From the NCBI GenBank assembly GCA_964491265.1, contig CAZBFP010000010.1:2233-66232 (forward strand): a stretch of DNA of 64,000 nucleotides. Reading direction: 5' to 3'. A program made the position numbers and the translations under genes. This document shows positions 6,577 through 18,970 of the stretch, piece by piece; position 1 is the first letter of the stretch, and each line of letters begins with the position of its first letter. A model generated the notes under the pieces. That model was not told the origin of the DNA. It was given only the letters and a program-made list of their open reading frames with translations, and did not search any database. This stretch comes from an uncultured Leptospirales bacterium. Its GTDB lineage: Bacteria > Spirochaetota > UBA4802 > UBA5550.

Positions 6577-8091
6577 ATGAATGAACGAATAGCAAATGCT
6601 CTTGAAGAAGCGAGGAAAGTAAGTGATGAAGGTATTATTCTTTCAGAACGGCTTTCTCCTAAATCAAGGGAAATACTAATAAATGCAGGATTCCTGGAAC
6701 GGATTGTCCGGGGCTGGTATATGCTTGTTTCTCCGGAATCTTCAGGCAGCAGTACTCCCTGGTTCAGTATGTACTGGCAATTCCTGAAACAGTATCTGGT
6801 TCAGCGTTTTGGTCAGTCAGGGTATTGTCTTTCGCCGCAGTCCTCTCTTGATATTTATACAGGGGAAACAACTGTCCCGGAGCAGATAATTATACTTACA
6901 GATAAAAACAGCAATACTACAGTACAGCTCCCCCGGGGGATATCTCTTCTTCTTTATCAGGATAGTAAATCCATACCTGAAAAACCCGGTAGGATTAACG
7001 GATTAAATCTTATGCCTCTCCCGTACGCAATAGCAAAGGCCTCTCCTGCCTATTATCAGAATAAATCAGATAATATTCAAATAGCTTTATCACTTGTTGA
7101 ATCTGTGTCAGATATCACAAGAGTACTTATTGAAACAGGGAGTATTGCAGCTGCTGAAAGGATTGCAGGAGCATATCTTGAAATTGGCAACAGTTCAGCT
7201 TCACAGACTGTTGTTAAGGATATGAAGCTGGCGGGTTATTCTGTTAAACCTGTAAATCCCTTTATATCAATTGTTCCTTTAATTGGTACAGGCAGGTTCC
7301 GTTCACCATATTCCCCGCGAATCATTGCTATGTGGAACAACTTCAGAGGCCCGGTAATTGATATGTTCCCGGAGCCTGTGATAAAAATAGATAACTCTGA
7401 TCCTGATAATGTAATAAAGAGAATCCGGGAGAATATTACTGAAGACGCATATCACTCCCTCTCTATTGAGGGGTACAGGGTTACAGATGATCTTATCAAA
7501 AGGGTCAGATCCGGGGAATGGAATCCTGATAAAGAAATATCAGACAGTAATCTCCGTGATACTCTTGCGGCTAAGGGGTATTCTCTTGCTTATGATGCAG
7601 TTCTTGACAGTGTAACTGAAGCATTAAAGGGGGGTAATCCCGGAAAGATATTTAAAGAGAGTCTGCCGGACTGGTATCGTCAGCTTTTTTACTCCATGGC
7701 CCAGGCAGGTATATTAAGATCAACAGATCTTATCGGATATAGAAGAAATCAGGTTTATATTAAAGATGCTCATCACATCCCGCCCCCTTATGAATCTGTT
7801 ATTGATGCCATGGATACACTCTTTGATCTGCTTCAGAAAGAGGAGAGCGGAGCTGTAAGGGCTTTACTTGGTCATTACTTTTTTGTATATATTCATCCTT
7901 ATATGGATGGTAATGGCAGACTGGCAAGATTTCTTATGAATTTAATGCTCGTTACTGCCGGATACCCCTGGACCATAATCCGGGTAACTGAAAGAGCAGG
8001 TTACATGAAGTCACTTGATCTGGTGGCCAGAGAGAAAGATATAAGGCCATTTACCAGGTTTATTATTCAGGAGATGATGGTAAATCATTGA
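6577..8091 (+). CDS. Fic/Doc-family protein (504 aa) with long N-terminal extension
   Basis: Canonical Fic motif HPYMDGNGRLARF (HPFx[DE]GNGR) near the C-terminus. Confidence 0.85.
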   Translation: MNERIANALEEARKVSDEGIILSERLSPKSREILINAGFLERIVRGWYMLVSPESSGSSTPWFSMYWQFLKQYLVQRFGQSGYCLSPQSSLDIYTGETTVPEQIIILTDKNSNTTVQLPRGISLLLYQDSKSIPEKPGRINGLNLMPLPYAIAKASPAYYQNKSDNIQIALSLVESVSDITRVLIETGSIAAAERIAGAYLEIGNSSASQTVVKDMKLAGYSVKPVNPFISIVPLIGTGRFRSPYSPRIIAMWNNFRGPVIDMFPEPVIKIDNSDPDNVIKRIRENITEDAYHSLSIEGYRVTDDLIKRVRSGEWNPDKEISDSNLRDTLAAKGYSLAYDAVLDSVTEALKGGNPGKIFKESLPDWYRQLFYSMAQAGILRSTDLIGYRRNQVYIKDAHHIPPPYESVIDAMDTLFDLLQKEESGAVRALLGHYFFVYIHPYMDGNGRLARFLMNLMLVTAGYPWTIIRVTERAGYMKSLDLVAREKDIRPFTRFIIQEMMVNH

Positions 8092-8375: not shown

Positions 8376-8686
8376 GCATTAATACACCGGCTGAGTTTAT
8401 CCGGTTTTATTCTCTTAATAAATACTATAATAAGAGCAGGATTAAACTCCGTCAACAAAAAAGATAAATGACTGCGGCAGATTCCAATCGGTGTTGAGAG
8501 ATGATGATGAAAAATAGAGTAATTTTAATCCACGGATTTATCAAGTTAATGAACGTATATAACAATCCTGTGAAAGACTTAATTGGTAGTCTCGGGATTC
8601 AATTATCTGCTTGACTATACAAATATAATATATACTCTAAAATATAGTTTTAAGTGAGCCGATAAATAAAGTAGACTAACGAAAAT

Positions 8687-8791
8687 ATGGCACAGCTCTT
8701 TAATACAACCCAACAGAACATAAGTCAGCATATCCAGAATATATATGAGGAACAGGAGCTGACACCGGAGGGAACTTTAAAAGAGAGGTGA
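8687..8791 (+). pseudogene. 34-codon remnant duplicating the RhuM-family N-terminal motif, ending 3 nt before the DUF2283 start
   Basis: MAQLFNTTQQNISQHIQNIYEEQELTPEGTLKER parallels LATLCDVSVPAINQHIKNIYDDHELDAEATIKK of the RhuM gene at 9236. The stop TGA lies inside aGGTGAattATG, which also serves as the RBS for the next gene. Confidence 0.5.
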
Positions 8792-8794
8792 ATT

Positions 8795-9031
8795 ATGGAA
8801 TTAAGTTATGATTCGAAATTTAATATCGCCTATATAAGGTTAAGAACCGGTGTTGAAGAGGTTGAAACTATTAAGATCAGCGAAGAACTGAATATTGATA
8901 TATCACCTGACGGAAAAGTTTACGGTATAGAATTGCTGAACGCCGGTGATCAGCTGGGAATGCTTGAAGGTAAACCTTTTACATTTATAAATGAAGCTAA
9001 AAACACAAAAACAGAAGTGCAGATTGCCTAA
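8795..9031 (+). CDS. DUF2283-family small protein
   Basis: YDSKFNIAYIRLRTGVEE...DGKVYGIELLNAG follows the DUF2283 pattern (YD.e.D.lYI.l.....GIEIL.A). Confidence 0.65.
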   Translation: MELSYDSKFNIAYIRLRTGVEEVETIKISEELNIDISPDGKVYGIELLNAGDQLGMLEGKPFTFINEAKNTKTEVQIA

Positions 9032-9235: not shown

Positions 9236-9958
9236 ATGGTAAAAAAAGATAAGCCGGTCATCACCATACGCAGTTTTGCTGCCGAATATCTGACCTATGT
9301 TGCCTCTGCTGGTGACAGTGAAAATAGTTTTGAAGTCCGCTATGAAGATGAAAATATATGGTTAACTCAAAAAATGCTGGCAACACTTTGTGATGTTTCT
9401 GTTCCGGCAATTAATCAGCACATCAAAAATATTTATGATGACCATGAATTGGATGCAGAGGCAACTATTAAGAAATACTTAACAGTTCAAAATGAGGGCA
9501 ACAGGAGTGTGAGCAGAGAGGTGGCTCATTATAACCTGCAGATGATTATAGCCGTAGGATTTAAAGTGAACTCGGAACGGGCTGTTCAATTCCGGAAATG
9601 GGTTAACCAGATTGCAAAAGATTACACCATTAAGGGCTGGGTTATGGATGATGAGCGTCTTAAAAAAGGAACTTATCTGACTGACAAATATTATGAGGAA
9701 CAGCTTGAACGTATAAGAGAAATCCGTTCAAGTAAGAGAAAATTCTATCAAAAGATTACTGACCTTTATGCAACAGCTTTTGATTATGACAAAACAGCAA
9801 AATCAACATATCGTTTTTATGCCACCGTTCAAAATAAAATGCATTTCGCGGTACATGGGCATACAGCTGCTGAATTGATTACAGAACGTGCGAATAGTGA
9901 AAAGAAATATATGGGGCTTACAACATGGCAGGATGCACCGGAATACGCAATTAAATAG
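9236..9958 (+). CDS. RhuM-family virulence protein (Virulence_RhuM), apparently C-terminally truncated or frameshifted at 240 aa
   Basis: INQHIKNIY and HYNLQMIIAVGFKVNSERAVQFRKWVNQIAKDYTIKGWVMDDERLKKG match the RhuM core (YNLDAIIAVGYRVNS..QFRQWAT). Homologs as recalled are about 330 aa. An out-of-frame ORF (9888-10190) continues after the stop. Confidence 0.65.
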   Translation: MVKKDKPVITIRSFAAEYLTYVASAGDSENSFEVRYEDENIWLTQKMLATLCDVSVPAINQHIKNIYDDHELDAEATIKKYLTVQNEGNRSVSREVAHYNLQMIIAVGFKVNSERAVQFRKWVNQIAKDYTIKGWVMDDERLKKGTYLTDKYYEEQLERIREIRSSKRKFYQKITDLYATAFDYDKTAKSTYRFYATVQNKMHFAVHGHTAAELITERANSEKKYMGLTTWQDAPEYAIK

Positions 9959-10217
9959 GGCTGGTGATGATACTGCTGTTAAAAAGCTGATTGATAATGT
10001 TCAGAGGGCTTATCTTAATAAGTATCTGATTAAACTTAATGATTCATGGCAGAAGGCGGTTGAATCTCATAATTTCAACTCAAGCCCGTTTATAAAGGAG
10101 AATTGTTTCTTTAATAAGAGTCGATTTATTGTATATTTCTGCACTATAATTATCTTTTTCACTTATTTTTGTTTTCTTCTTTACAAATAAAGGATATATT
10201 TTACTTATAAGTAAACA

Positions 10218-10667
10218 TTGATAATGAATGAACCGATAAAAAAGCATGGCGGGTATCTAATAGCTGCAGGTGAGCAGTTTGATATAATCGCAGCTATTAA
10301 TGGTAATGGGAAATCTCCGTTTTGGGAGTATTTTGCTACTTTGAATGAAGAGGTTATAAAAAGACTTCAGAAAGGTTCTAAAAGTAATAAAGATGTAAAA
10401 GATTATAAGACTCTTCAGTTTTATTTTGATAAATTTAGTAATAAAGGAAGGTGGAATAATAAGACTCAGCTGAATTCTCTTGATGATGGATTCTGGGAAT
10501 TCAAGAATGTTGATACAGGATTACGAGTCCCTTTTTATTATGATGAACAGAATAGAAAGGTTATAGTATTAACTCATTATTTTGAGAAGAAGTCTCAGAA
10601 AACTCCGGCTAAAGAAATAGAAAGAATGAAACAGATCAAAAAGGAGTTTGAGAATTACAGGGGGTAG
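10218..10667 (+). CDS. higB: HigB-type / Gp49-like (RelE-ParE superfamily) toxin
   Basis: GNGKSPFWEYF...DGFWEFKNVDTGLRVPFYYDEQNRKVIVLTHYFEKKSQKTPAKEIERMKQIKKEF follows the Gp49/DUF891 HigB pattern (GKSP..EF....G.WELR...RIFY.....IVLLHGF.KKTQKTP..EIE.AK). Confidence 0.8.
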   Translation: MIMNEPIKKHGGYLIAAGEQFDIIAAINGNGKSPFWEYFATLNEEVIKRLQKGSKSNKDVKDYKTLQFYFDKFSNKGRWNNKTQLNSLDDGFWEFKNVDTGLRVPFYYDEQNRKVIVLTHYFEKKSQKTPAKEIERMKQIKKEFENYRG

Positions 10668-10671
10668 TAAC

Positions 10672-10962
10672 ATGAGTGGATACAATATTTTTAACGATTC
10701 AATACCGGTAGAATTAAAAGATTTATATAACGAAGAATATGCACAAACCGAAGCACTCCTGAATGCAGCGAATCTTATCAGTGAAGCTATGGAGGAAAGT
10801 AGAATTAATCAGACTGAACTTGCGGAGCTTCTCGGAGTAAGCAGAGGCTATGTTTCAAGGTTACTCTCCGGGAATGAGAATATGTCAATAAAGAATGTTT
10901 CAAGAGTACTTCATGTTCTTGGTAAAAAATATATACAGACAACCGGGGATATACCTCGATAA
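10672..10962 (+). CDS. higA: XRE-family HTH antitoxin (HigA-like), 96 aa
   Basis: HTH INQTELAELLGVSRGYVSRLLSG. ATG at 10672 lies 8 nt after an AGGGGG RBS and 4 nt after the toxin stop. Order toxin then antitoxin is the HigBA arrangement. Confidence 0.75.
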   Translation: MSGYNIFNDSIPVELKDLYNEEYAQTEALLNAANLISEAMEESRINQTELAELLGVSRGYVSRLLSGNENMSIKNVSRVLHVLGKKYIQTTGDIPR

Positions 10963-11082
10963 AATAGTGGTAAAGTCGTATATTTTAAAGATTATTCGAA
11001 TGTCAATGTTGACAATGAAGATATTAAATGTGTTATACGAACAAATGAAACAGAGTCCAGATGGCTGGGAGCAGTTTAAAAG

Positions 11083-11487
11083 ATGGATATAGCTAAACAG
11101 CCCGGAATAATATGCAATTCAGTAATTCTTGTAGAATCAATCTTTAAGAGAGAACCTGAAATACCTCAGCATGTTAATATGGAAATGCAAATTGAAATAA
11201 ATAATTCAATCGCCCATGATTCATCGGCGTTGTCTTCAGAGGTTATACTTACGGTTAATAAGCCTGAATCCTCTGTATATGCCAAGGTCACTTATGTTGG
11301 TATTTTTACTGTTAATGATTCTCCAAATCTTGATCTTAATGAATTTGCGGACTGTAATGCACCGGCAATTATATTCCCATATATTAGGGAGGAGATCCAT
11401 AACAGAATGATGAAAGCCGGTATTCCCCTTATGATTTTACCTCCAATAAATATTAAAGCACTTGTCGATGCTTCTAAATGTAAATAG
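11083..11487 (+). CDS. SecB-like chaperone (candidate TAC-system chaperone)
   Basis: NAPAIIFPYIREEIHNRMMKAGIPLMILPPINIKALV aligns with the SecB C-terminal block [36 protein letters not shown]. Upstream region is beta-rich and SecB-like. Confidence 0.6.
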   Translation: MDIAKQPGIICNSVILVESIFKREPEIPQHVNMEMQIEINNSIAHDSSALSSEVILTVNKPESSVYAKVTYVGIFTVNDSPNLDLNEFADCNAPAIIFPYIREEIHNRMMKAGIPLMILPPINIKALVDASKCK

Positions 11488-11573
11488 CATTCTGTGTGTT
11501 GTTTATTATTTATGAATAATTGAACTTTCCGGATAATCCCTCTCTTTTCCATAATACTCAGGAGTTCCCGGTA

Positions 11574-12083
11574 TTGTTAACTAAACTCTTCATTAAGCTA
11601 CAGAAACTTGACCGGAATAAATACAGGAAGAGAGCATTGATTTCCGGCATTATACTCTTTATAATATTGGCACTTGACCTTCACAGGTTCGGGGCCTGGT
11701 ACATGGAATCGCGGACTTATGTGAAACCGTACTGGATTCCGGGGATACTTATAGTCAGTTATCCCATGTTTAAATATTCAATCTCGGGCCTGATTCAATA
11801 CCTGTCAGCAAAAGAGATGTTTAAAACTCTACACTTTGCTATGTTCTATATTTCATCTGCTCCCTTTACCTTTCCGGTTGCAGTAGTATATTTACACAGC
11901 TTCTTATTTAAAGATGTATTGCCTTGGTATGAAAAAGATATATTTAATCCCGGGCCTGAATTTTATCTTGCAGTTTTACTGGTGATTCTTTCCCCTCAGC
12001 CTTATATAGCTCTTGCATTATTTGCAGAATTTCACGCAACTTATATATGGCCCTGGCTGGAGAAGAAGATTAGCGGGGATTGA
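11574..12083 (+). CDS. Small polytopic membrane protein, copy A of a paralogous pair flanking the giant helicase gene
   Basis: TTG start 9 nt after an AGGAG RBS (11560-11564). DNA and protein homology with 16992-17507 begins exactly here. About 4 predicted TM segments. Ends ...IWPWLEKKISGD. Confidence 0.6.
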   Translation: MLTKLFIKLQKLDRNKYRKRALISGIILFIILALDLHRFGAWYMESRTYVKPYWIPGILIVSYPMFKYSISGLIQYLSAKEMFKTLHFAMFYISSAPFTFPVAVVYLHSFLFKDVLPWYEKDIFNPGPEFYLAVLLVILSPQPYIALALFAEFHATYIWPWLEKKISGD

Positions 12084-12233
12084 TATAGACATTTTCTGAC
12101 CGACAGAAAGTGGCTATATAAAATTAGAGCAAAAGCCTAAAAGAGCTTGAAGTTATGTTATGATGTGTATCATTGAACTGAGACTTAATATTACGTTATA
12201 TTTAAAATGATTTAATGCGTAAAGAGGAAAGAA

Positions 12234-15200
12234 ATGATTCAAACTACAGTTGCTGAGAAAAACCTTACCGAAGCTCGCCAAAAGCTTCTTGATTTAACAA
12301 TGAGAAATAAATTGTTAAATCATAGAGCATCAAAAAATAAATCTATAAGGGTTGTAGATGAAATTACACGAGAGATATATAACATTCTTGTTATCCAGCA
12401 TAAACAGATGGAGTTCAAATATAATCCTGAAACAGATAAAGTTGATGCATCAGAACTTTTATTTGAAGATGTTTCTCAAAATGAAGTGGACCAGCCCTCT
12501 ATCTGGAGTAATGAATCTAATAATGAAAAAGTTTCATCAAAACATCTTGATAAATATCTGCAAACAAATCTTGGGAATGAGGCATTGCAGAAAACCCTTT
12601 TCTTAATATACAACCAGGCAAAAACAGTAATGGAAGAACAGGGGTATACTGTGCTATTTCTGGCACTTGGATTTTTAGAATGGAAGGAAAGCAGCGATTC
12701 TATAAAACTAAGGCGATCTCCGCTTATATTGATTCCGGTGGAGTTGGAAAGAACTAATGTGCGTTCGGCGTTTAAATTAACTTGGACAGGTGATGAGATA
12801 TATTCTAATATTTCTCTACAGGCAAAACTTTCTGAGCAAAATGTCTCTATACCAAGTTTTGAAATGCCTGATGATAAACAGTATTTAGATCTTTACTTTG
12901 ATGAAATTATAGAAGCTTGTAAAAATCAAAAGGATTGGGGTATCACCCAGGATATTTATCTTGATTTCTTTAGTTTCACTAAATTTGTAATGTATAAAGA
13001 TTTGGACCCGATATCATGGATCGATAATCCTCCGCTTGATAGTCCTTTAATAAAAATGTTATTAGACCCGAACTATGTTCAGGAAGGAGGAGATAACTTT
13101 TTAGAAGAAGAGATTGATATAAAACTCTCTGCAAAGAGCACGTATAATATTATGGATGCAGATCCCTCACAGATTGTCGTTATCGAAAATGTTAAGCAAA
13201 AAATGAATATAGTTGTAGAAGGCCCTCCGGGGACAGGTAAATCTCAAACTATTACAAATTTAATCGCTGATCTTCTGGCAGAGGGAAAAAGTGTTCTTTT
13301 TGTAAGTGAAAAAATGGCGGCATTGGAAGTTGTTAAGAATAGACTTGATCTAGTTGGTTTAGGTGATTTTTGTCTTGAATTACATAGTCGTAAAACAAAT
13401 AAGAAAAATGTATTAGCAGAGTTGGAGCGTACATTCAAAAGACCTGTAGCATCTAAACTTGCCGAAGACACAAAATATCAAGAATTAGATGATATGAAGC
13501 TAAAGCTAAATAATTATGCCAGTGCACTCAAAGCTCAAGTCGGAAAGATAAAATGGACTCCATATAAATTGTTTTCACTGTATGAAGAAGCTGTTTGTTC
13601 TTTTGAAAAAAATGAGAAGGAATTCAAATCTGTGAAGATTGATGAACCTGAAGAAATTACTATAGAGGATTATCAGTCTGCAATTATGGCTTTAAATGAA
13701 TTTATGGATTTATTCGAACTAGTAGCTCCAATAGATTCTAATCCCTGGAAAGCATCTCGTCCCGACATAATATTGCCAGCAGATCAACAAAGAATAAAAG
13801 AAATAATTGATGATATTCAATCAAAGATAAAAGAGTTAAAGAAACAACTTGCGATAGTATCATCTGAATTTGCAATAATTAATCCGCCTAGCTTAAATGA
13901 ATTTGGAAATATTTTAGTACCTATTTTAGATTTATTGTCCAATTTCAAAAAGATTAATATTCAGGTATTGCTAAATAATTATAACGAATATGAGGCTTCA
14001 CAATTAATTCTTAATTTGAGGCAGTATAAAGTTTCTTTAGATAATATTAGAAATAGTTTTAATATAAACAAACTGGATGAAGATATATCAAAAATAGTTG
14101 ATGATTTTAAAACTCTATCAACCAGTTTCACACATCTATTCAAACCTTCCTATTATTGTAAACGAAAAGAATTTATATCATTATTTAGAAATCCTGTTAA
14201 AATTAAAAATGATTTGTTGATTCGAGAATTGGAAGGTGTGGTTTTATTTCAACAAAAGCGTGAAATGATCTACGGATATAAAGGGCTTGGTGATTCTTTG
14301 TTTGGTGAATACTGGAAAGGGATAGACTCTGATATTGATGAATTAGTTAATTTTGTTGCCTGGATTAAAAAATATCAAAATGCTTTAAATAATGGATGGA
14401 TTTTAAAACAAAACGCAGAGATTATGAATAACAATAAGTCAAATATTTCTTTAAATGAAACAGAAATAAATTTAAAAAATATTATCGTTCATATACAATC
14501 ACAATATTCAGAATTATCAGAAATTTTGAAATTGTCTGAATCCACGGAAGATTTTAATTCTATTGAATTTAGTGATCTGGAAAATAAGCTTAGTGATTGG
14601 ACAAGTAATTTGCATAGTTTACAAAAGTGGTCACATTATATAACCAAAAGAAGTGTTGTTTGTTGTAACATAGCGAAAGAATTGGTTCAGGAAATTGAAA
14701 ATGGTAAAATTGAAATTGAAGAAATAATTCCGGCCTTTAAGGGCAGTATTGCCAAAAGCCTGCTAGATTATTCTTTTAACCTTTATCCGGCTTTATCGGG
14801 TTTTCTTGGAGAAATTCATGATAAAAATATCAAACGCTTTTCTGAGTTAGATAATCAAATAATTCGTTTAAATCGACAAAGATTAGTTCATATTTTGTCT
14901 TCAAGAAGACCAACAATTTATAGCGGGAAATCAGATGGATCTGAAATGGGTATTTTGCAAGGGGAGTTTAATCGTAAAAGAGGGCATATGCCTATCCGAA
15001 AACTTCTATCAAATGCTGGTTCAATAATCCGAGGTGCAAAGCCTTGCTTTATGATGAGCCCATTATCTATTGCACAATTTTTATCACCAGCAAGTACACC
15101 TTTTGATGTAATAATTTTTGATGAAGCGAGCCAGGTCAAACCTGAAGATGCGTTAGGTGCTTTGATGCGAGGTCGCCAACTTGTAGTCATGGGAGACACA

Positions 15201-16988
15201 AAACAATTACCGCCTACAAGTTTTTTTGATCATATTGGTGAGGAGCTTGATTTTGATGAAGATGAGATGCTAATAACTGCTACGGAAAGTATACTTCATC
15301 AGTGCAAAAGGTGCTTCCCTGTAAAAATGTTGAAATGGCATTATAGGAGCAAACATGAATCATTAATTGCTGTATCAAATCAAGAATTCTATGAAAATGA
15401 ATTATTGATTTATCCGTCTTCCATAAAAACGGATAAGAATTTAGGCTTGTTTTTTAAATACCTTCCAGATACGATTTACGATCGTGGGAAAAGTTCAATT
15501 AATCGTTTGGAAGCAAGGGCAGTTGCCAAAGCCGCAATAGAGCATTATCAAAATAATCCCGATAAATCACTTGGTATTGGTACATTTAACATGAAACAGC
15601 AACAAGCTGTATTAGAAGAAATAGAACTGCAGCTAAAACATCATCCGGAAATGGAAGATTACTTTAAATCAAATGTCTCTGAGCATTTTTTTGTAAAAAA
15701 CCTAGAAACCATCCAAGGGGATGAACGAGATTTTATCATTATAAGTATCGGATTTGGTTATGATGCTGATAAAAAGTTGTCTGCAAATTTTGGTCCTCTT
15801 AATCACGAAGGCGGTGAAAGACGTTTAAATGTCTTGATAAGTCGTGCGCGGGAATGTTGTATTGTGTATTCAAACTTCAGGGCTGCAGACTTGAGTATAA
15901 GTGCGGAATCGTCAAAAGGTGTTAGATCTTTAAAAGTGTTTATAGATTATGCCGAGTCCCGAAATCTTCGGTCTACTGAACCAGTAAGTGAAGATACTGA
16001 CTCCCCATTTGAGGATTCTGTATATGATTTTCTATCTGATAATGGGCATATTGTTAGGAAACAGGTTGGTTGCGCTGGTTTCAGAATTGATTTAGCCATT
16101 GTTGACGAGAAAAACCCAGGTCGTTATCTACTTGCTATTGAATGTGATGGAGCGAAGTATCATAGCTCTCCTGTTGCAAGAGATCGGGATCGATTAAGAC
16201 AACAGATACTGGAAAAGTTAGGCTGGAATATTTATCGAATCTGGTCAACCGATTGGTATAGAAATAGACATATGGCCAAGCGGGCACTACTTAATTTTAT
16301 AGAGAAAATAAAGGTATCTAATCGATATAATACTTCAATGGATAATCAAACTTTACATGCAAGTGATTGTGAGATTAAATATAATGAACCTTTAATGACA
16401 GAAGATTATATCTCATTGATTGATTCTATACCTGAATATGAAATTTGTAATAGCCTGCTATTAAATACAAGTAGGCAAATACATGAAATAAATAGAACTT
16501 ACTTTTCATCCGCAATTGAAAGTATTGTTAATGTAGAAAGTCCTGTTCATATTGATGAAGTAATTAAAAGAATTCGGACATATTGGGGTTTGCAAAAAAC
16601 AGGGAGTCGTATCCGTGATCATTTGACTTTTGCCATAAAATATGCTACGAGAAATACTTCAATAGAACTTAGAAATAACTTTCTATATCTTAAGGATAAA
16701 CCAGTTATTGTTCGCAAGAGAACAAATGGTGAACCATCGCCGGATATTAACCTGATATGCGATGAAGAGATACAAGAAGCAATTTTACATGTATTAAAGA
16801 ATTTGTTTTCAACAGAGATCGATTCATTAGCTATTCAAGCTTCTCGTCTTTTTGGAATTCAAGCGACAAGAGCTATCACGCATAATCGAATAAAGGAAAA
16901 CATATTTTTACTACAAAAACAACATCGTATAGATATTGATTCAAAAAACACTGTAAGAATAATTTCATTTAGCTCAGGAATGAATTGA
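12234..16988 (+). CDS. 1584-aa multidomain protein: DUF4011-like N-terminus, SF1 Upf1/DNA2-like helicase (AAA_11/AAA_12), PD-(D/E)xK DUF559/Vsr-like nuclease-like domain, DUF3320-like tail; candidate defence helicase-nuclease
   Basis: Strong RBS AGAGGAAAG before the ATG. N-terminus has LLDLTMRNKLLN and FLALGFLEW...SPLILIPVEL (DUF4011 hallmarks as recalled). Walker A VVEGPPGTGKSQTI, Walker B VIIFDEASQ, then HYRS..ESLI..SN, QGDERDFIIIS and ERRLNVLISRARE helicase motifs. C-terminal GFRIDLAIVDE...LAIECDGAKYHSS...WNIYRIWSTDW matches the DUF559 restriction-endonuclease-like fold. Confidence 0.8.
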   Translation: MIQTTVAEKNLTEARQKLLDLTMRNKLLNHRASKNKSIRVVDEITREIYNILVIQHKQMEFKYNPETDKVDASELLFEDVSQNEVDQPSIWSNESNNEKVSSKHLDKYLQTNLGNEALQKTLFLIYNQAKTVMEEQGYTVLFLALGFLEWKESSDSIKLRRSPLILIPVELERTNVRSAFKLTWTGDEIYSNISLQAKLSEQNVSIPSFEMPDDKQYLDLYFDEIIEACKNQKDWGITQDIYLDFFSFTKFVMYKDLDPISWIDNPPLDSPLIKMLLDPNYVQEGGDNFLEEEIDIKLSAKSTYNIMDADPSQIVVIENVKQKMNIVVEGPPGTGKSQTITNLIADLLAEGKSVLFVSEKMAALEVVKNRLDLVGLGDFCLELHSRKTNKKNVLAELERTFKRPVASKLAEDTKYQELDDMKLKLNNYASALKAQVGKIKWTPYKLFSLYEEAVCSFEKNEKEFKSVKIDEPEEITIEDYQSAIMALNEFMDLFELVAPIDSNPWKASRPDIILPADQQRIKEIIDDIQSKIKELKKQLAIVSSEFAIINPPSLNEFGNILVPILDLLSNFKKINIQVLLNNYNEYEASQLILNLRQYKVSLDNIRNSFNINKLDEDISKIVDDFKTLSTSFTHLFKPSYYCKRKEFISLFRNPVKIKNDLLIRELEGVVLFQQKREMIYGYKGLGDSLFGEYWKGIDSDIDELVNFVAWIKKYQNALNNGWILKQNAEIMNNNKSNISLNETEINLKNIIVHIQSQYSELSEILKLSESTEDFNSIEFSDLENKLSDWTSNLHSLQKWSHYITKRSVVCCNIAKELVQEIENGKIEIEEIIPAFKGSIAKSLLDYSFNLYPALSGFLGEIHDKNIKRFSELDNQIIRLNRQRLVHILSSRRPTIYSGKSDGSEMGILQGEFNRKRGHMPIRKLLSNAGSIIRGAKPCFMMSPLSIAQFLSPASTPFDVIIFDEASQVKPEDALGALMRGRQLVVMGDTKQLPPTSFFDHIGEELDFDEDEMLITATESILHQCKRCFPVKMLKWHYRSKHESLIAVSNQEFYENELLIYPSSIKTDKNLGLFFKYLPDTIYDRGKSSINRLEARAVAKAAIEHYQNNPDKSLGIGTFNMKQQQAVLEEIELQLKHHPEMEDYFKSNVSEHFFVKNLETIQGDERDFIIISIGFGYDADKKLSANFGPLNHEGGERRLNVLISRARECCIVYSNFRAADLSISAESSKGVRSLKVFIDYAESRNLRSTEPVSEDTDSPFEDSVYDFLSDNGHIVRKQVGCAGFRIDLAIVDEKNPGRYLLAIECDGAKYHSSPVARDRDRLRQQILEKLGWNIYRIWSTDWYRNRHMAKRALLNFIEKIKVSNRYNTSMDNQTLHASDCEIKYNEPLMTEDYISLIDSIPEYEICNSLLLNTSRQIHEINRTYFSSAIESIVNVESPVHIDEVIKRIRTYWGLQKTGSRIRDHLTFAIKYATRNTSIELRNNFLYLKDKPVIVRKRTNGEPSPDINLICDEEIQEAILHVLKNLFSTEIDSLAIQASRLFGIQATRAITHNRIKENIFLLQKQHRIDIDSKNTVRIISFSSGMN

Positions 16989-16991
16989 TAA

Positions 16992-17507
16992 ATGCTGTTA
17001 ACTAAACTCTTCATTAAACTTCAAAAACTTGACCGGAATAAATACAGAAAACGGGCATTGATTTCTGGTACTATCCTCATTACTATATTGGCACTGGATC
17101 TGCACAGGTTCGGTGCCTGGTACATGGAGTCCCGGACTTATGTGAAACCGTACTGGATTCCGGGGATACTTATAGTCAGTTATCCCATGTTTAAATATTC
17201 CCTGTCCGGTCTTATACAATATCTTGCCTCAAGACAAATGTTTAGAGCTCTTTATTTCCTGATGTTTTTTATAGCTGCATTGCCATTCTCATTCTGTAAT
17301 CCCCAAACCTTGAGAATATTTGCATGGGGAGGGAGACCCTGGTATGAGAAGGATATTTTTAGTTCCGGGGCGGAATTTTATATCGGGCTGGCATGGATTA
17401 TACCTACAGTTTTAATATTTATGGTAATATCTTTAGCGGTAGGATATTATAATGACCATATATGGCCCTGGCTGGAGAAGAAGATCAGCGGGGAGAAAGA
17501 TTCATAA
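16992..17507 (+). CDS. Small polytopic membrane protein, copy B, starting 4 nt after the helicase stop
   Basis: First 65 aa and last 12 aa nearly identical to copy A. Central part about 50% identical. A 66-bp DNA stretch (acttatgtgaaaccgtactgg...gtttaaatattc) is identical between the copies. Confidence 0.65.
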   Translation: MLLTKLFIKLQKLDRNKYRKRALISGTILITILALDLHRFGAWYMESRTYVKPYWIPGILIVSYPMFKYSLSGLIQYLASRQMFRALYFLMFFIAALPFSFCNPQTLRIFAWGGRPWYEKDIFSSGAEFYIGLAWIIPTVLIFMVISLAVGYYNDHIWPWLEKKISGEKDS

Positions 17508-17546
17508 GGCTATACCGGATAGTAAAACTGGAAATTATTATAATTG

Positions 17547-17575
17547 TTGACACATTCGATAGAAATACCTATACT
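17547..17575 (+). promoter_or_regulatory. Near-consensus sigma70-type promoter TTGACA-17-TATACT reading towards the integrase remnant and tRNA
   Basis: TTGACA at 17547-17552, 17-nt spacer, TATACT at 17570-17575. Confidence 0.4.
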
Positions 17576-17810
17576 TGTTTGTAGTTATAGGTAATTTTAT
17601 CAGGACTGAGAAGTAAGCATTTTAATTGTGGTTCTTCACTCTCTGCCATTTACAACCTCGAATTATTCTCAGAATATCACTCAATTAGTAAGAGTCCATA
17701 GATAGCAAGAAGTATCTTCGGGGATGAAGTTTAAAAAGAAATCTCTCAAGTTCTTCATCTGTCATATATTCATAATCCTGAGATTTCTCCGGGTGCATGT
17801 ATACAGTCAG

Positions 17811-17972
17811 TCTCTGCTCAATATGGGTGTCAGCCTGGAGGATATACAGAGCCTTCTTGGACATCAGGATATTACCACAACGCAGAGAAGATATGCGCAA
17901 CATGCCAGGCCTGATCTGCTGGATAAGGGGAGCAAAATTGATAATGTGATTAAAATTCAGCGGTTCGGCTGA
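17811..17972 (+). pseudogene. C-terminal remnant (about 53 aa) of a tyrosine recombinase / phage-type integrase
   Basis: LLNMGVSLEDIQSLLGHQDITTTQRRYAQHARPDLL matches the integrase C-terminal box (LLGHssi.tTq.Y.H) with the catalytic Tyr. Upstream part of the ORF is not integrase-like. Lies directly beside the tRNA 3' end. Confidence 0.7.
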
Positions 17973-18000: not shown

Positions 18001-18048
18001 AAACATGCCCGTTATGCGGAAATAGATAACCCCTGATTAAATCAGGGG
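18001..18048 (-). terminator. Possible intrinsic terminator hairpin for the tRNA transcript
   Basis: cccctga-ttaaa-tcagggg hairpin (18030-18048) follows the tRNA 3' end on the minus strand and is followed by a U-rich tract (uuaucuauuucc). Confidence 0.35.
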
Positions 18049-18053
18049 TTATG

Positions 18054-18127
<74 letters not shown>

Positions 18128-18190: not shown

Positions 18191-18970
18191 CTATGGATAA
18201 ACCCTTACAAAATTCTTATCAAAGCTGTTGAAATCAGGTTCATGAAAATTAAGGACCCGGTAGTTCCCTTCTGCTAAACGTTTTATAATCGCCATATTGT
18301 TTTTGTGATTATAAAATGCTCCTATACCGATCTGTTCCTCAACATTTTTTGAGTAAATAACTTCATCGCCGGTAAAGCAGAATTCAACATCATTATGCTT
18401 GAGAAAAACAACAGATGAACCTGCAGAATGACCGCCGACTTTCTCTATTGAAATATTGTCATAGAGCTGTGTTGTGTCCTGAAATGTAATAACCCGGTTG
18501 CTCTTTTTTAAAAAATCTTTTATATCAAGTAGTCCTCTCAAGTTAAAGAACTGCCTGAATTCATCCTTCTGGATATAAATGTTTGCCTGCTTGAATTTAT
18601 GCACAGATCCGATATGATCAAAATGAGCATGTGTAATAATTATATCTGTAATCTCATCAGGATCGATACCGTTTTCTTTTAGAATTTCAGCAGGATCTTT
18701 AAAATTCTGAAGATTATAGAGCTTAATCAGGTTGGGGTTATTGAATCCTGTATCAACAAGAATTTTTATACCCTTATAGTTTATATAATAAAATTTCCAT
18801 GCAAAGGGGATTTTATCCTCCCCTTTGTAATTATGGAAAATATATTTTTTTGGATACATGGAATCCGCGTATTTTATTTCATATATCTGAAGTTCATTAT
18901 CACCGCTTTTACTGCAGTAGAGAATTGAAGCGGCAACAATTAAAATAATCGCGAATAACTTTTTAATCAC
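18191..18970 (-). CDS. MBL-fold metallo-hydrolase, probable lipoprotein
   Basis: HxHxDH zinc motif IITHAHFDHIGS. N-terminal signal with a lipobox-like ILYC. Confidence 0.75.
   Translation of the reverse strand: MIKKLFAIILIVAASILYCSKSGDNELQIYEIKYADSMYPKKYIFHNYKGEDKIPFAWKFYYINYKGIKILVDTGFNNPNLIKLYNLQNFKDPAEILKENGIDPDEITDIIITHAHFDHIGSVHKFKQANIYIQKDEFRQFFNLRGLLDIKDFLKKSNRVITFQDTTQLYDNISIEKVGGHSAGSSVVFLKHNDVEFCFTGDEVIYSKNVEEQIGIGAFYNHKNNMAIIKRLAEGNYRVLNFHEPDFNSFDKNFVRVYP

Follow-up and report, generated by a model that had tools for sequence, protein, structure and literature searches.

The window analysed here is a 64,000-nt stretch of contig CAZBFP010000010.1 from an uncultured Leptospirales bacterium (assembly GCA_964491265.1, positions 2,233 to 66,232). 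It carries a gene for a 1584-amino-acid (aa) helicase-nuclease between two small, directly repeated membrane-protein genes, copy A and copy B. An earlier note, made from the sequence alone, had proposed the three genes as an undescribed membrane/helicase/membrane defence module. Our analysis favours, with a probability of roughly 0.62, a helicase-nuclease that is self-sufficient as a single gene, bracketed by orphan paralogues that are not its partners but supply recombining direct-repeat homology. The features that bear on this reading are as follows (window positions, strand).

11574-12083, +, copy A, membrane protein of 169 aa with a TTG start, an A-type body and the tail ...ISGD (open reading frame (ORF) map, BLASTP)
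11712-11779, +, exact 68-nt block in copy A, identical to 17133-17200; recent conversion tract and recombination junction
12043-12079, +, 3' conserved block in copy A, 97% identical to 17458-17494, with 28 nt exact; second recombination junction
12084-12233, +, spacer of 150 nt holding the helicase ribosome-binding site (sequence inspection)
12234-16988, +, DUF4011 / SF1 helicase / MTES_1575 (Vsr-like PD-(D/E)xK) nuclease / DUF3320 protein of 1584 aa, PDC-S37 class (Pfam, PADLOC, NCBIfam)
16992-17507, +, copy B, membrane protein of 171 aa with an ATG start, a B-type body and the tail ...ISGEKDS (ORF map, BLASTP)
17133-17200, +, exact 68-nt block in copy B, partner of the copy A block
17458-17494, +, 3' conserved block in copy B, partner of the copy A block

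The helicase-nuclease belongs to a single-gene class

Pfam assigned DUF4011 (PF13195), AAA_11 and AAA_12 (PF13086/PF13087, SF1), MTES_1575 (PF18741) and DUF3320 to the helicase, and its motifs are all intact (Walker A GPPGTGKS, DEASQ, GDTKQLPP, QGDERD and nuclease ECDG). The PADLOC hidden Markov model (HMM) for PDC-S37 (PDLC05009) matched at full length (1679.7 bits, E 0; residues 7-1568 on profile positions 6-1540 of 1550), so that the suspicion of a defence-type helicase-nuclease was well founded. PDC-S37 has the same domain order, DUF4011, SF1 helicase, MTES_1575 nuclease and DUF3320, and its definition includes no membrane partner. Hhe, reportedly first described by Gao et al. in 2020, resembles the window helicase in its DUF4011 N-terminus, SF1 core, Vsr-like nuclease, island context and confinement to one gene, and the Hhe architecture of DUF4011, SF1 helicase and Vsr-like nuclease in one polypeptide is present here according to Pfam. 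The PADLOC Hhe model scored 678 bits over the whole protein in three stretches (best stretch: residues 828-1360), and NCBIfam Hhe_antiphage (NF042953) scored 983 bits, also in three stretches (best: 729-1373), below its 2000-bit cut-off. NCBIfam NF058533, 'anti-phage protein ProA', reached 1336.9 bits over residues 7-1543, below its cut-off of 1500 bits. That match covers profile positions 356-1902 of 1903; the N-terminal 355 positions are missing and the N-terminal region of ProA, unlike the remainder, has no counterpart in the helicase. The protein fails both NCBIfam equivalog cut-offs and is a relative of Hhe and ProA, not a member.

The helicase family comprises at least 7,941 clusters at E<=1e-50, with uniform architecture across bacteria and archaea, and the nearest relatives of the window protein are ~50% identical. 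Hhe is listed with a single gene (PMC11232893), and PDC systems are described as untested phage-defence candidates of one or more genes (bioRxiv 10.1101/2024.01.29.577857). A literature search found no describing paper for ProA or PDC-S37. We conclude that the helicase adds a diverged protein to the known single-gene class (Hhe/PDC-S37) of candidate anti-phage helicase-nucleases. A match to an already named system, which the earlier note had set against its own proposal, was thus found for the helicase alone (PDC-S37); the membrane genes match none.

In seven Poribacteria genomes (among L024-L032) the helicase homologue follows an enolase-superfamily-like gene (starting MKITNIETF...), and this conserved neighbourhood gives it a core-like rather than island-borne appearance. 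A conserved DUF4011 gene flanks a defence hotspot in Pseudomonas aeruginosa (PMC10250203).

The membrane genes have no fixed partner

We examined nine loci with helicase homologues of 43-47% identity, seven from Poribacteria and one each from Methanobacteriaceae and Nitrospirales. Their ORFs in all six frames, searched with a profile, included no member of the membrane family, and none of the nine loci had a flanking small transmembrane gene on the same strand. Conversely, a DUF4011 helicase stood beside the membrane gene in none of ~12 contexts outside the strain cluster of the window. The two families differ in size by more than 200-fold (at least 7,941 helicase clusters vs ~20-40 membrane clusters). 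The membrane gene was found in the following helicase-less contexts.

L012: HigB-HTH, then the membrane gene after a 3-nt gap
L010: membrane gene after MNT-HEPN
L006: B-type orthologue ahead of AbiEi/AbiEii
L008: A-type orthologue after HicA and ahead of a type III-B CRISPR-Cas operon (Cas6, RAMP, Cmr2, Cmr3), 10001-17025
L004, L005, L009: large serine recombinase converging on the membrane gene, with 5-9 nt between the stop codons
L021: membrane gene adjoining a WYL regulator
L017-L020: membrane gene among small variable genes

Where an upstream gene is visible, the membrane gene is usually the last gene on that strand. Because these contexts are varied and lack the helicase, we regard the membrane family as accessory cargo of mobile and defence regions without a fixed partner. 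The two membrane genes are not dedicated partners of the helicase, and the proposal of a three-gene module is not supported, since homologues of the membrane gene never adjoin the helicase family outside this strain cluster.

Within the window, the description of the gene order given in the earlier note was accurate. The ATG of copy B is the 4th base past the helicase stop (3-nt gap), and the helicase starts 150 nt past the end of copy A with its own ribosome-binding site, GAGGA; AGGAG precedes the TTG of copy A, for which an alternative TTG start lies upstream at 11520. A pattern scan found no terminator-like site between the genes, and to judge from this spacing the helicase and copy B probably share a transcript. 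By position, copy A goes with the toxin-antitoxin-chaperone (TAC)-like operon upstream of it and copy B with the helicase transcript. The first 40 nt of the 150-nt spacer are also conserved behind the A-type gene of L008.

This arrangement could be taken for a lineage-specific two- or three-component defence system, in which the helicase would sense or process phage DNA while copy B, and perhaps copy A, would serve as effector, anchor or regulator. Such a system would explain the 3-nt spacing and probable shared transcript, the identical arrangement in two strains, the purifying selection on the membrane gene and the frequency with which its family closes toxin or defence operons, as an accessory effector might. 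We nevertheless consider it unlikely, given the nine helicase loci without a membrane gene, the disparity in family size and the ~12 membrane-gene contexts without a helicase. Moreover, the helicase relatives Hhe and PDC-S37 are catalogued as single-gene systems, and intact membrane genes persist in the helicase-less arrangement L023 described below. Copy B may still be coupled in function to the helicase at this one locus, a possibility that the comparisons do not favour.

Several of the membrane-gene loci carry further traces of mobile DNA. At L012, a 3' fragment of a tRNA-Arg gene (~45 nt) and a terminator hairpin (8765-8841) lie 260 nt past the HigB-HigA-membrane operon; the fragment is 82% identical to window positions 18020-18095, and ARAGORN finds no full tRNA there. 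It is probably the distal attachment (att) remnant of an island that targeted the same tRNA as the window island. The serine-recombinase-linked membrane subfamily (L004 1336-1345, L009 672-678, L005) adjoins a prophage-like lysogeny module (HTH repressor, pRha) and is without the IWPWLEKKISG tail; the 3' end of its gene may be an attachment site. At L008, an 83-nt remnant of the 3' end of a SecB-like gene (8658-8740) lies 1.3 kb upstream of the A-type copy, with the HicA gene and a 111-aa ORF between them. L008 comes from the same metagenome as the sister strain L007, and a third paralogue in one genome is possible.

The two copies are old direct-repeat paralogues

Copies A and B encode proteins with 109 of 169 residues identical (64%; BLASTP, E 5e-78), confirming that the small genes around the helicase are direct-repeat paralogues. 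Their DNA homology comprises 277 nt at 83% identity (11575-11851 and 16996-17272) and a 3' stretch of 37 nt at 97% (12043-12079 and 17458-17494), with a repeat spacing of 5,421 nt (11575 to 16996). It opens one base into the start codon and closes 1-4 codons ahead of the stops, which agrees with the extent claimed previously, from the start codons to a few codons before the stops. The exact block reported there as 66 bp exists and measures 68 nt; a run of this length was reached in 2 of 100,000 codon-column shuffles. Amino acid identity is 93% in the first 75 residues and 90% in the tail. The centre (alignment columns 76-160) has indeed diverged, to 37% rather than the ~50% given before.

The earlier note had attributed this pattern to gene conversion homogenising the ends. 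In codons 1-50, the proportion of synonymous differences between the copies (pS) is ~0.5 and that of non-synonymous differences (pN) ~0.02, so that the amino acid identity of this part reflects purifying selection on the protein, not homogenisation of the DNA. Ectopic exchange between the copies did occur, as set out in the next section, and it is the homogenisation of the first 50 codons that has to be dropped. The centre is saturated at synonymous sites (pS 0.7-1.0), implying that the paralogues are old and that exchange is limited to the ends.

Two other origins of the pattern were considered. A recent tandem duplication of the membrane gene was rejected because of the saturated central synonymous sites, and a nucleotide-level constraint behind the 68-nt block, such as an att site, was rejected because the orthologues in L008 and L007 (copy B) vary inside the block. 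The orthologue of copy A in L008 is 91% identical at the DNA level and that of copy B in L006 87%.

Segments are exchanged between the copies

The sister strain L007 is 98.7% identical to the window over 20.5 kb. Mismatches are concentrated in the copies, with 25 in 11500-11750 and 23 in 17000-17250 vs ~7 in the 4.5 kb between. Codons 1-50 of copy A in L007 correspond to window copy B (1 difference) and codons 51-169 to window copy A (0 differences); by this comparison, the first 150 nt of copy A are replaced by the copy B version. In the 5' segment of copy B in L007, window-A-like and L008-like stretches alternate in a fine mosaic, and TTG has taken the place of the ATG. A 276-kb contig of an independent ENA assembly encodes the same proteins as L007 (P0041, P0051).

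Other alleles join the two genes in either order. An A body with a B tail, the tail extending beyond the homology, was found in L023/P0004, P0043 and P0046. L023 reads as a helicase-less arrangement because it has a B-type flank downstream and lacks the 3' end of the helicase upstream. P0039 fuses the two copies perfectly: its first 87 aa equal ORF 11520-11780, with the extension that is found only ahead of copy A, and its last 140 aa equal copy B. It has the form expected after a helicase-deleting crossover within the 68-nt block, and may be that product or a mis-join by a small-k assembler. The reciprocal product, with the start and 5' end of B and the body and tail of A, is P0050, on a contig of 5,562 nt (5,421 + 141); this length would suit a circular or tandem cassette, with k=141 in the assembly, or else a cyclic path in the assembly graph. 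A helicase fragment of 751 aa (P0053) was also observed on a contig of 5,538 nt. On sequence evidence, the copies recombine with each other and exchange segments, and helicase-less arrangements are demonstrated in part. Recombination between the copies is the most likely route by which the cassette would be lost, gained and exchanged.

The duplication might instead be due to site-specific integration, with the membrane gene as an att-bearing target and an element carrying the helicase having brought a replacement copy. Large serine recombinase genes 5-9 nt from the 3' end of the membrane gene on three contigs, homology breakpoints at the gene ends and the location of both window and L012 in tRNA-Arg-targeting islands would fit such a target. 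There is, however, no recombinase inside or adjoining the 5.4-kb cassette, and the junctions vary, lying ~30 nt into the gene in L023, in the 68-nt block or in the 3' block. Variable junctions inside shared blocks fit homologous rather than site-specific recombination. The saturated A/B centre, furthermore, shows that a target duplication was not recent. We consider site-specific integration improbable.

That the mosaic and chimeric alleles are mixed-strain assembly artefacts and the helicase landed between the paralogues by chance is the least probable explanation. In its favour, the comparison data are all metagenome contigs, the P0039 junction falls exactly in the 68-nt repeat and the P0050 contig could be a graph cycle. 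Against it, the L007 configuration is shared by a JGI assembly (364-kb contig) and an independent ENA one (276-kb contig), and on the left its exchanged tract is delimited by exact matches of only 22-23 nt, a length that we would not expect to mislead a large final k-mer. The A-body/B-tail alleles, moreover, occur on several contigs with private substitutions, and the window itself, of which three other contigs give 99.9-100% identical copies, contains the 68-nt block.

Recombining homology around a candidate defence gene

For the reading that we prefer, a self-sufficient helicase between recombining repeats, the helicase domains and present knowledge of the class suggest a mechanism in which the SF1 motor with its Vsr-like PD-(D/E)xK nuclease would translocate on invading DNA and cut it. 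The orphan membrane family rides in mobile and defence regions, where it usually closes toxin-antitoxin or defence operons, and copies A and B supply direct-repeat homology on either side of the cassette. Homologous recombination between the conserved 5' and 3' blocks swaps segments and yields chimeric genes, and the same recombination should delete or re-insert the 5.4-kb helicase cassette.

Several observations weigh against this reading. The membrane-gene contexts are nearly all from short metagenome contigs. A shared transcript is likely (3-nt gap, no terminator), and the two strains observed retain all three genes. Only the 68-nt repeat has the length to mislead an assembler with k<=55, and the P0039 junction falls within it; neither an excised circle nor an empty site was seen directly at the DNA level in the same strain. 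PDC-S37 is itself a candidate system, and the membrane protein, for which we guess a role below, has no relative in PHROGs or in phage, plasmid or viral collections.

In P. aeruginosa, the defence hotspot cDHS1 exchanges cassettes by homologous recombination at conserved flanking genes (PMC10250203). The present arrangement resembles such hotspots: the defence genes beside a conserved flanking gene vary (helicase, type III CRISPR-Cas, AbiE), and recombination breakpoints lie in this gene. Unlike in cDHS1, no pair of different core genes forms the flanks; a single cassette is enclosed by two diverged direct paralogues of a very small orphan accessory gene, and this conserved gene itself travels with mobile elements. 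The trio would accordingly be no new three-gene defence system, and with the helicase already covered by current defence catalogues a false lead is removed. What the locus would offer is a small natural example of a defence gene gained, lost and reshuffled via diverged direct-repeat paralogues.

A rare membrane-protein family

Copies A and B matched nothing in Pfam, PADLOC, NCBIfam or PHROGs, in line with the previous statement that the membrane protein belongs to no named defence system, and had no sequence match in PDB. A Foldseek search against PDB and BFVD returned no meaningful relative (best E ~1). No relatives were detected in viral contigs (two alignments scanned) or in phage and plasmid collections (tblastn), nor by a scan of the family alignment over a genome contig collection. 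The family amounts to 9 clusters in 5.8 billion proteins (22 with a broader profile; clusters at 90% identity) and to 19 representatives in 1.84 billion (at 50% identity). It is flagged here as a rare fold-orphan membrane family, often behind toxin-antitoxin or defence operons in mobile regions.

In the AlphaFold2 model (predicted local distance difference test score 84), four long helices come after a short one at the N-terminus, and a hydropathy scan marks three of the four as strongly hydrophobic; the protein is predicted to have 3-4 transmembrane helices. Its N-terminus is probably cytoplasmic, being very basic (8 K/R in 22 residues). The family motif D-x-H-[RK]-x-G-A-W follows the first helix; D36, H38, G41, A42 and W43 are invariant and R39 nearly so. 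We regard the membrane gene as functional and under purifying selection because of the ratio of non-synonymous to synonymous substitution between orthologues (dN/dS 0.05-0.2) and the confidence of the model. From the conserved DxHRxGAW N-terminal half, the fast-diverging half with the third and fourth transmembrane helices (TM3-loop-TM4) and the island position, we would tentatively guess at a stand-alone protein of the exclusion or abortive-infection type whose variable TM3-loop-TM4 part sets specificity, a role that we regard as possible but doubtful.

The island around the locus

The locus lies in a region with a GC content of 0.29-0.37 (12-17 kb) vs ~0.38-0.43 in most of the window. The neighbouring features are listed below.

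10218-10667, +, Gp49/HigB-like toxin gene, first of the upstream TAC set (Pfam PF05973 Gp49, E 3.7e-9)
10672-10962, +, HTH_3 (HigA-like) antitoxin gene (Pfam HTH_3 PF01381, E 8e-9; equal to L001 3681-3971)
11083-11487, +, SecB-like chaperone gene, TAC-type third component (Pfam SecB PF02556, E 3.7e-14; PADLOC PD-T4-9_C, E 1.8e-11)
17508-17617, +, conserved block behind B-type genes, with a promoter-like TTGACA-17-TATACT at 17547-17575
17724-17972, +, C-terminal remnant of a tyrosine recombinase, the island integrase (NCBIfam XerD/XerA/integron-integrase partial matches, residues 22-59 only)
18053-18127, -, tRNA-Arg(TCG), island anchor

The tRNA-Arg(TCG), the Gp49/HTH/SecB-like set and the low GC content bear out the placement of the module in a tRNA-anchored AT-rich island beside a toxin-antitoxin module. 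Rfam detected only the tRNA over the whole window, and a search within the window found neither a second tRNA-Arg-derived att repeat nor the left island border. The island at tRNA-Arg is decayed.

According to Pfam, the Gp49, HTH_3 and SecB-like genes in series have the gene make-up of a TAC system. This series directly upstream of copy A resembles TAC HigB-HigA-SecB-like systems and PD-T4-9, with the difference that among the three genes only the SecB-like one matches the PD-T4-9 model. Described TAC systems are not known to include a membrane gene as a fourth component.

The 110-nt block after B-type genes is 87% conserved between window 17508-17617 and L006 416-524. Its promoter-like site lies ~45 nt ahead of AbiEi in L006 and in the window faces the integrase remnant only. 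One may speculate that DxHRxGAW genes and the promoter-bearing block act as portable 'homology handles' for a RecA-driven exchangeable array of defence and toxin cassettes, although we think this very doubtful. If true, the handles would be a protein-coding analogue of the integron that works by homologous recombination; their cassettes would include the helicase, AbiE, type III CRISPR-Cas and toxin-antitoxin modules, and the 5,562-nt P0050 contig would be the excised 5,421-nt circle.

Further genes of interest were noted on both sides of the locus. The same island holds a gene for a Fic-domain protein of 504 aa (6577-8091; PADLOC SoFic, E 8.5e-26) and a DUF2283 gene (8795-9031). A RhuM-family gene (9236-10190; PADLOC PDC-S05) covers profile positions 1-158 of 252 only and is overlapped by ORF 9888-10190, which may indicate a frameshift or truncation. 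Past the tRNA, a metallo-beta-lactamase-fold gene (18191-18970, -) has, in the annotation of L001, a weak precomputed Pfam match to Anti-Pycsar Apyc1.

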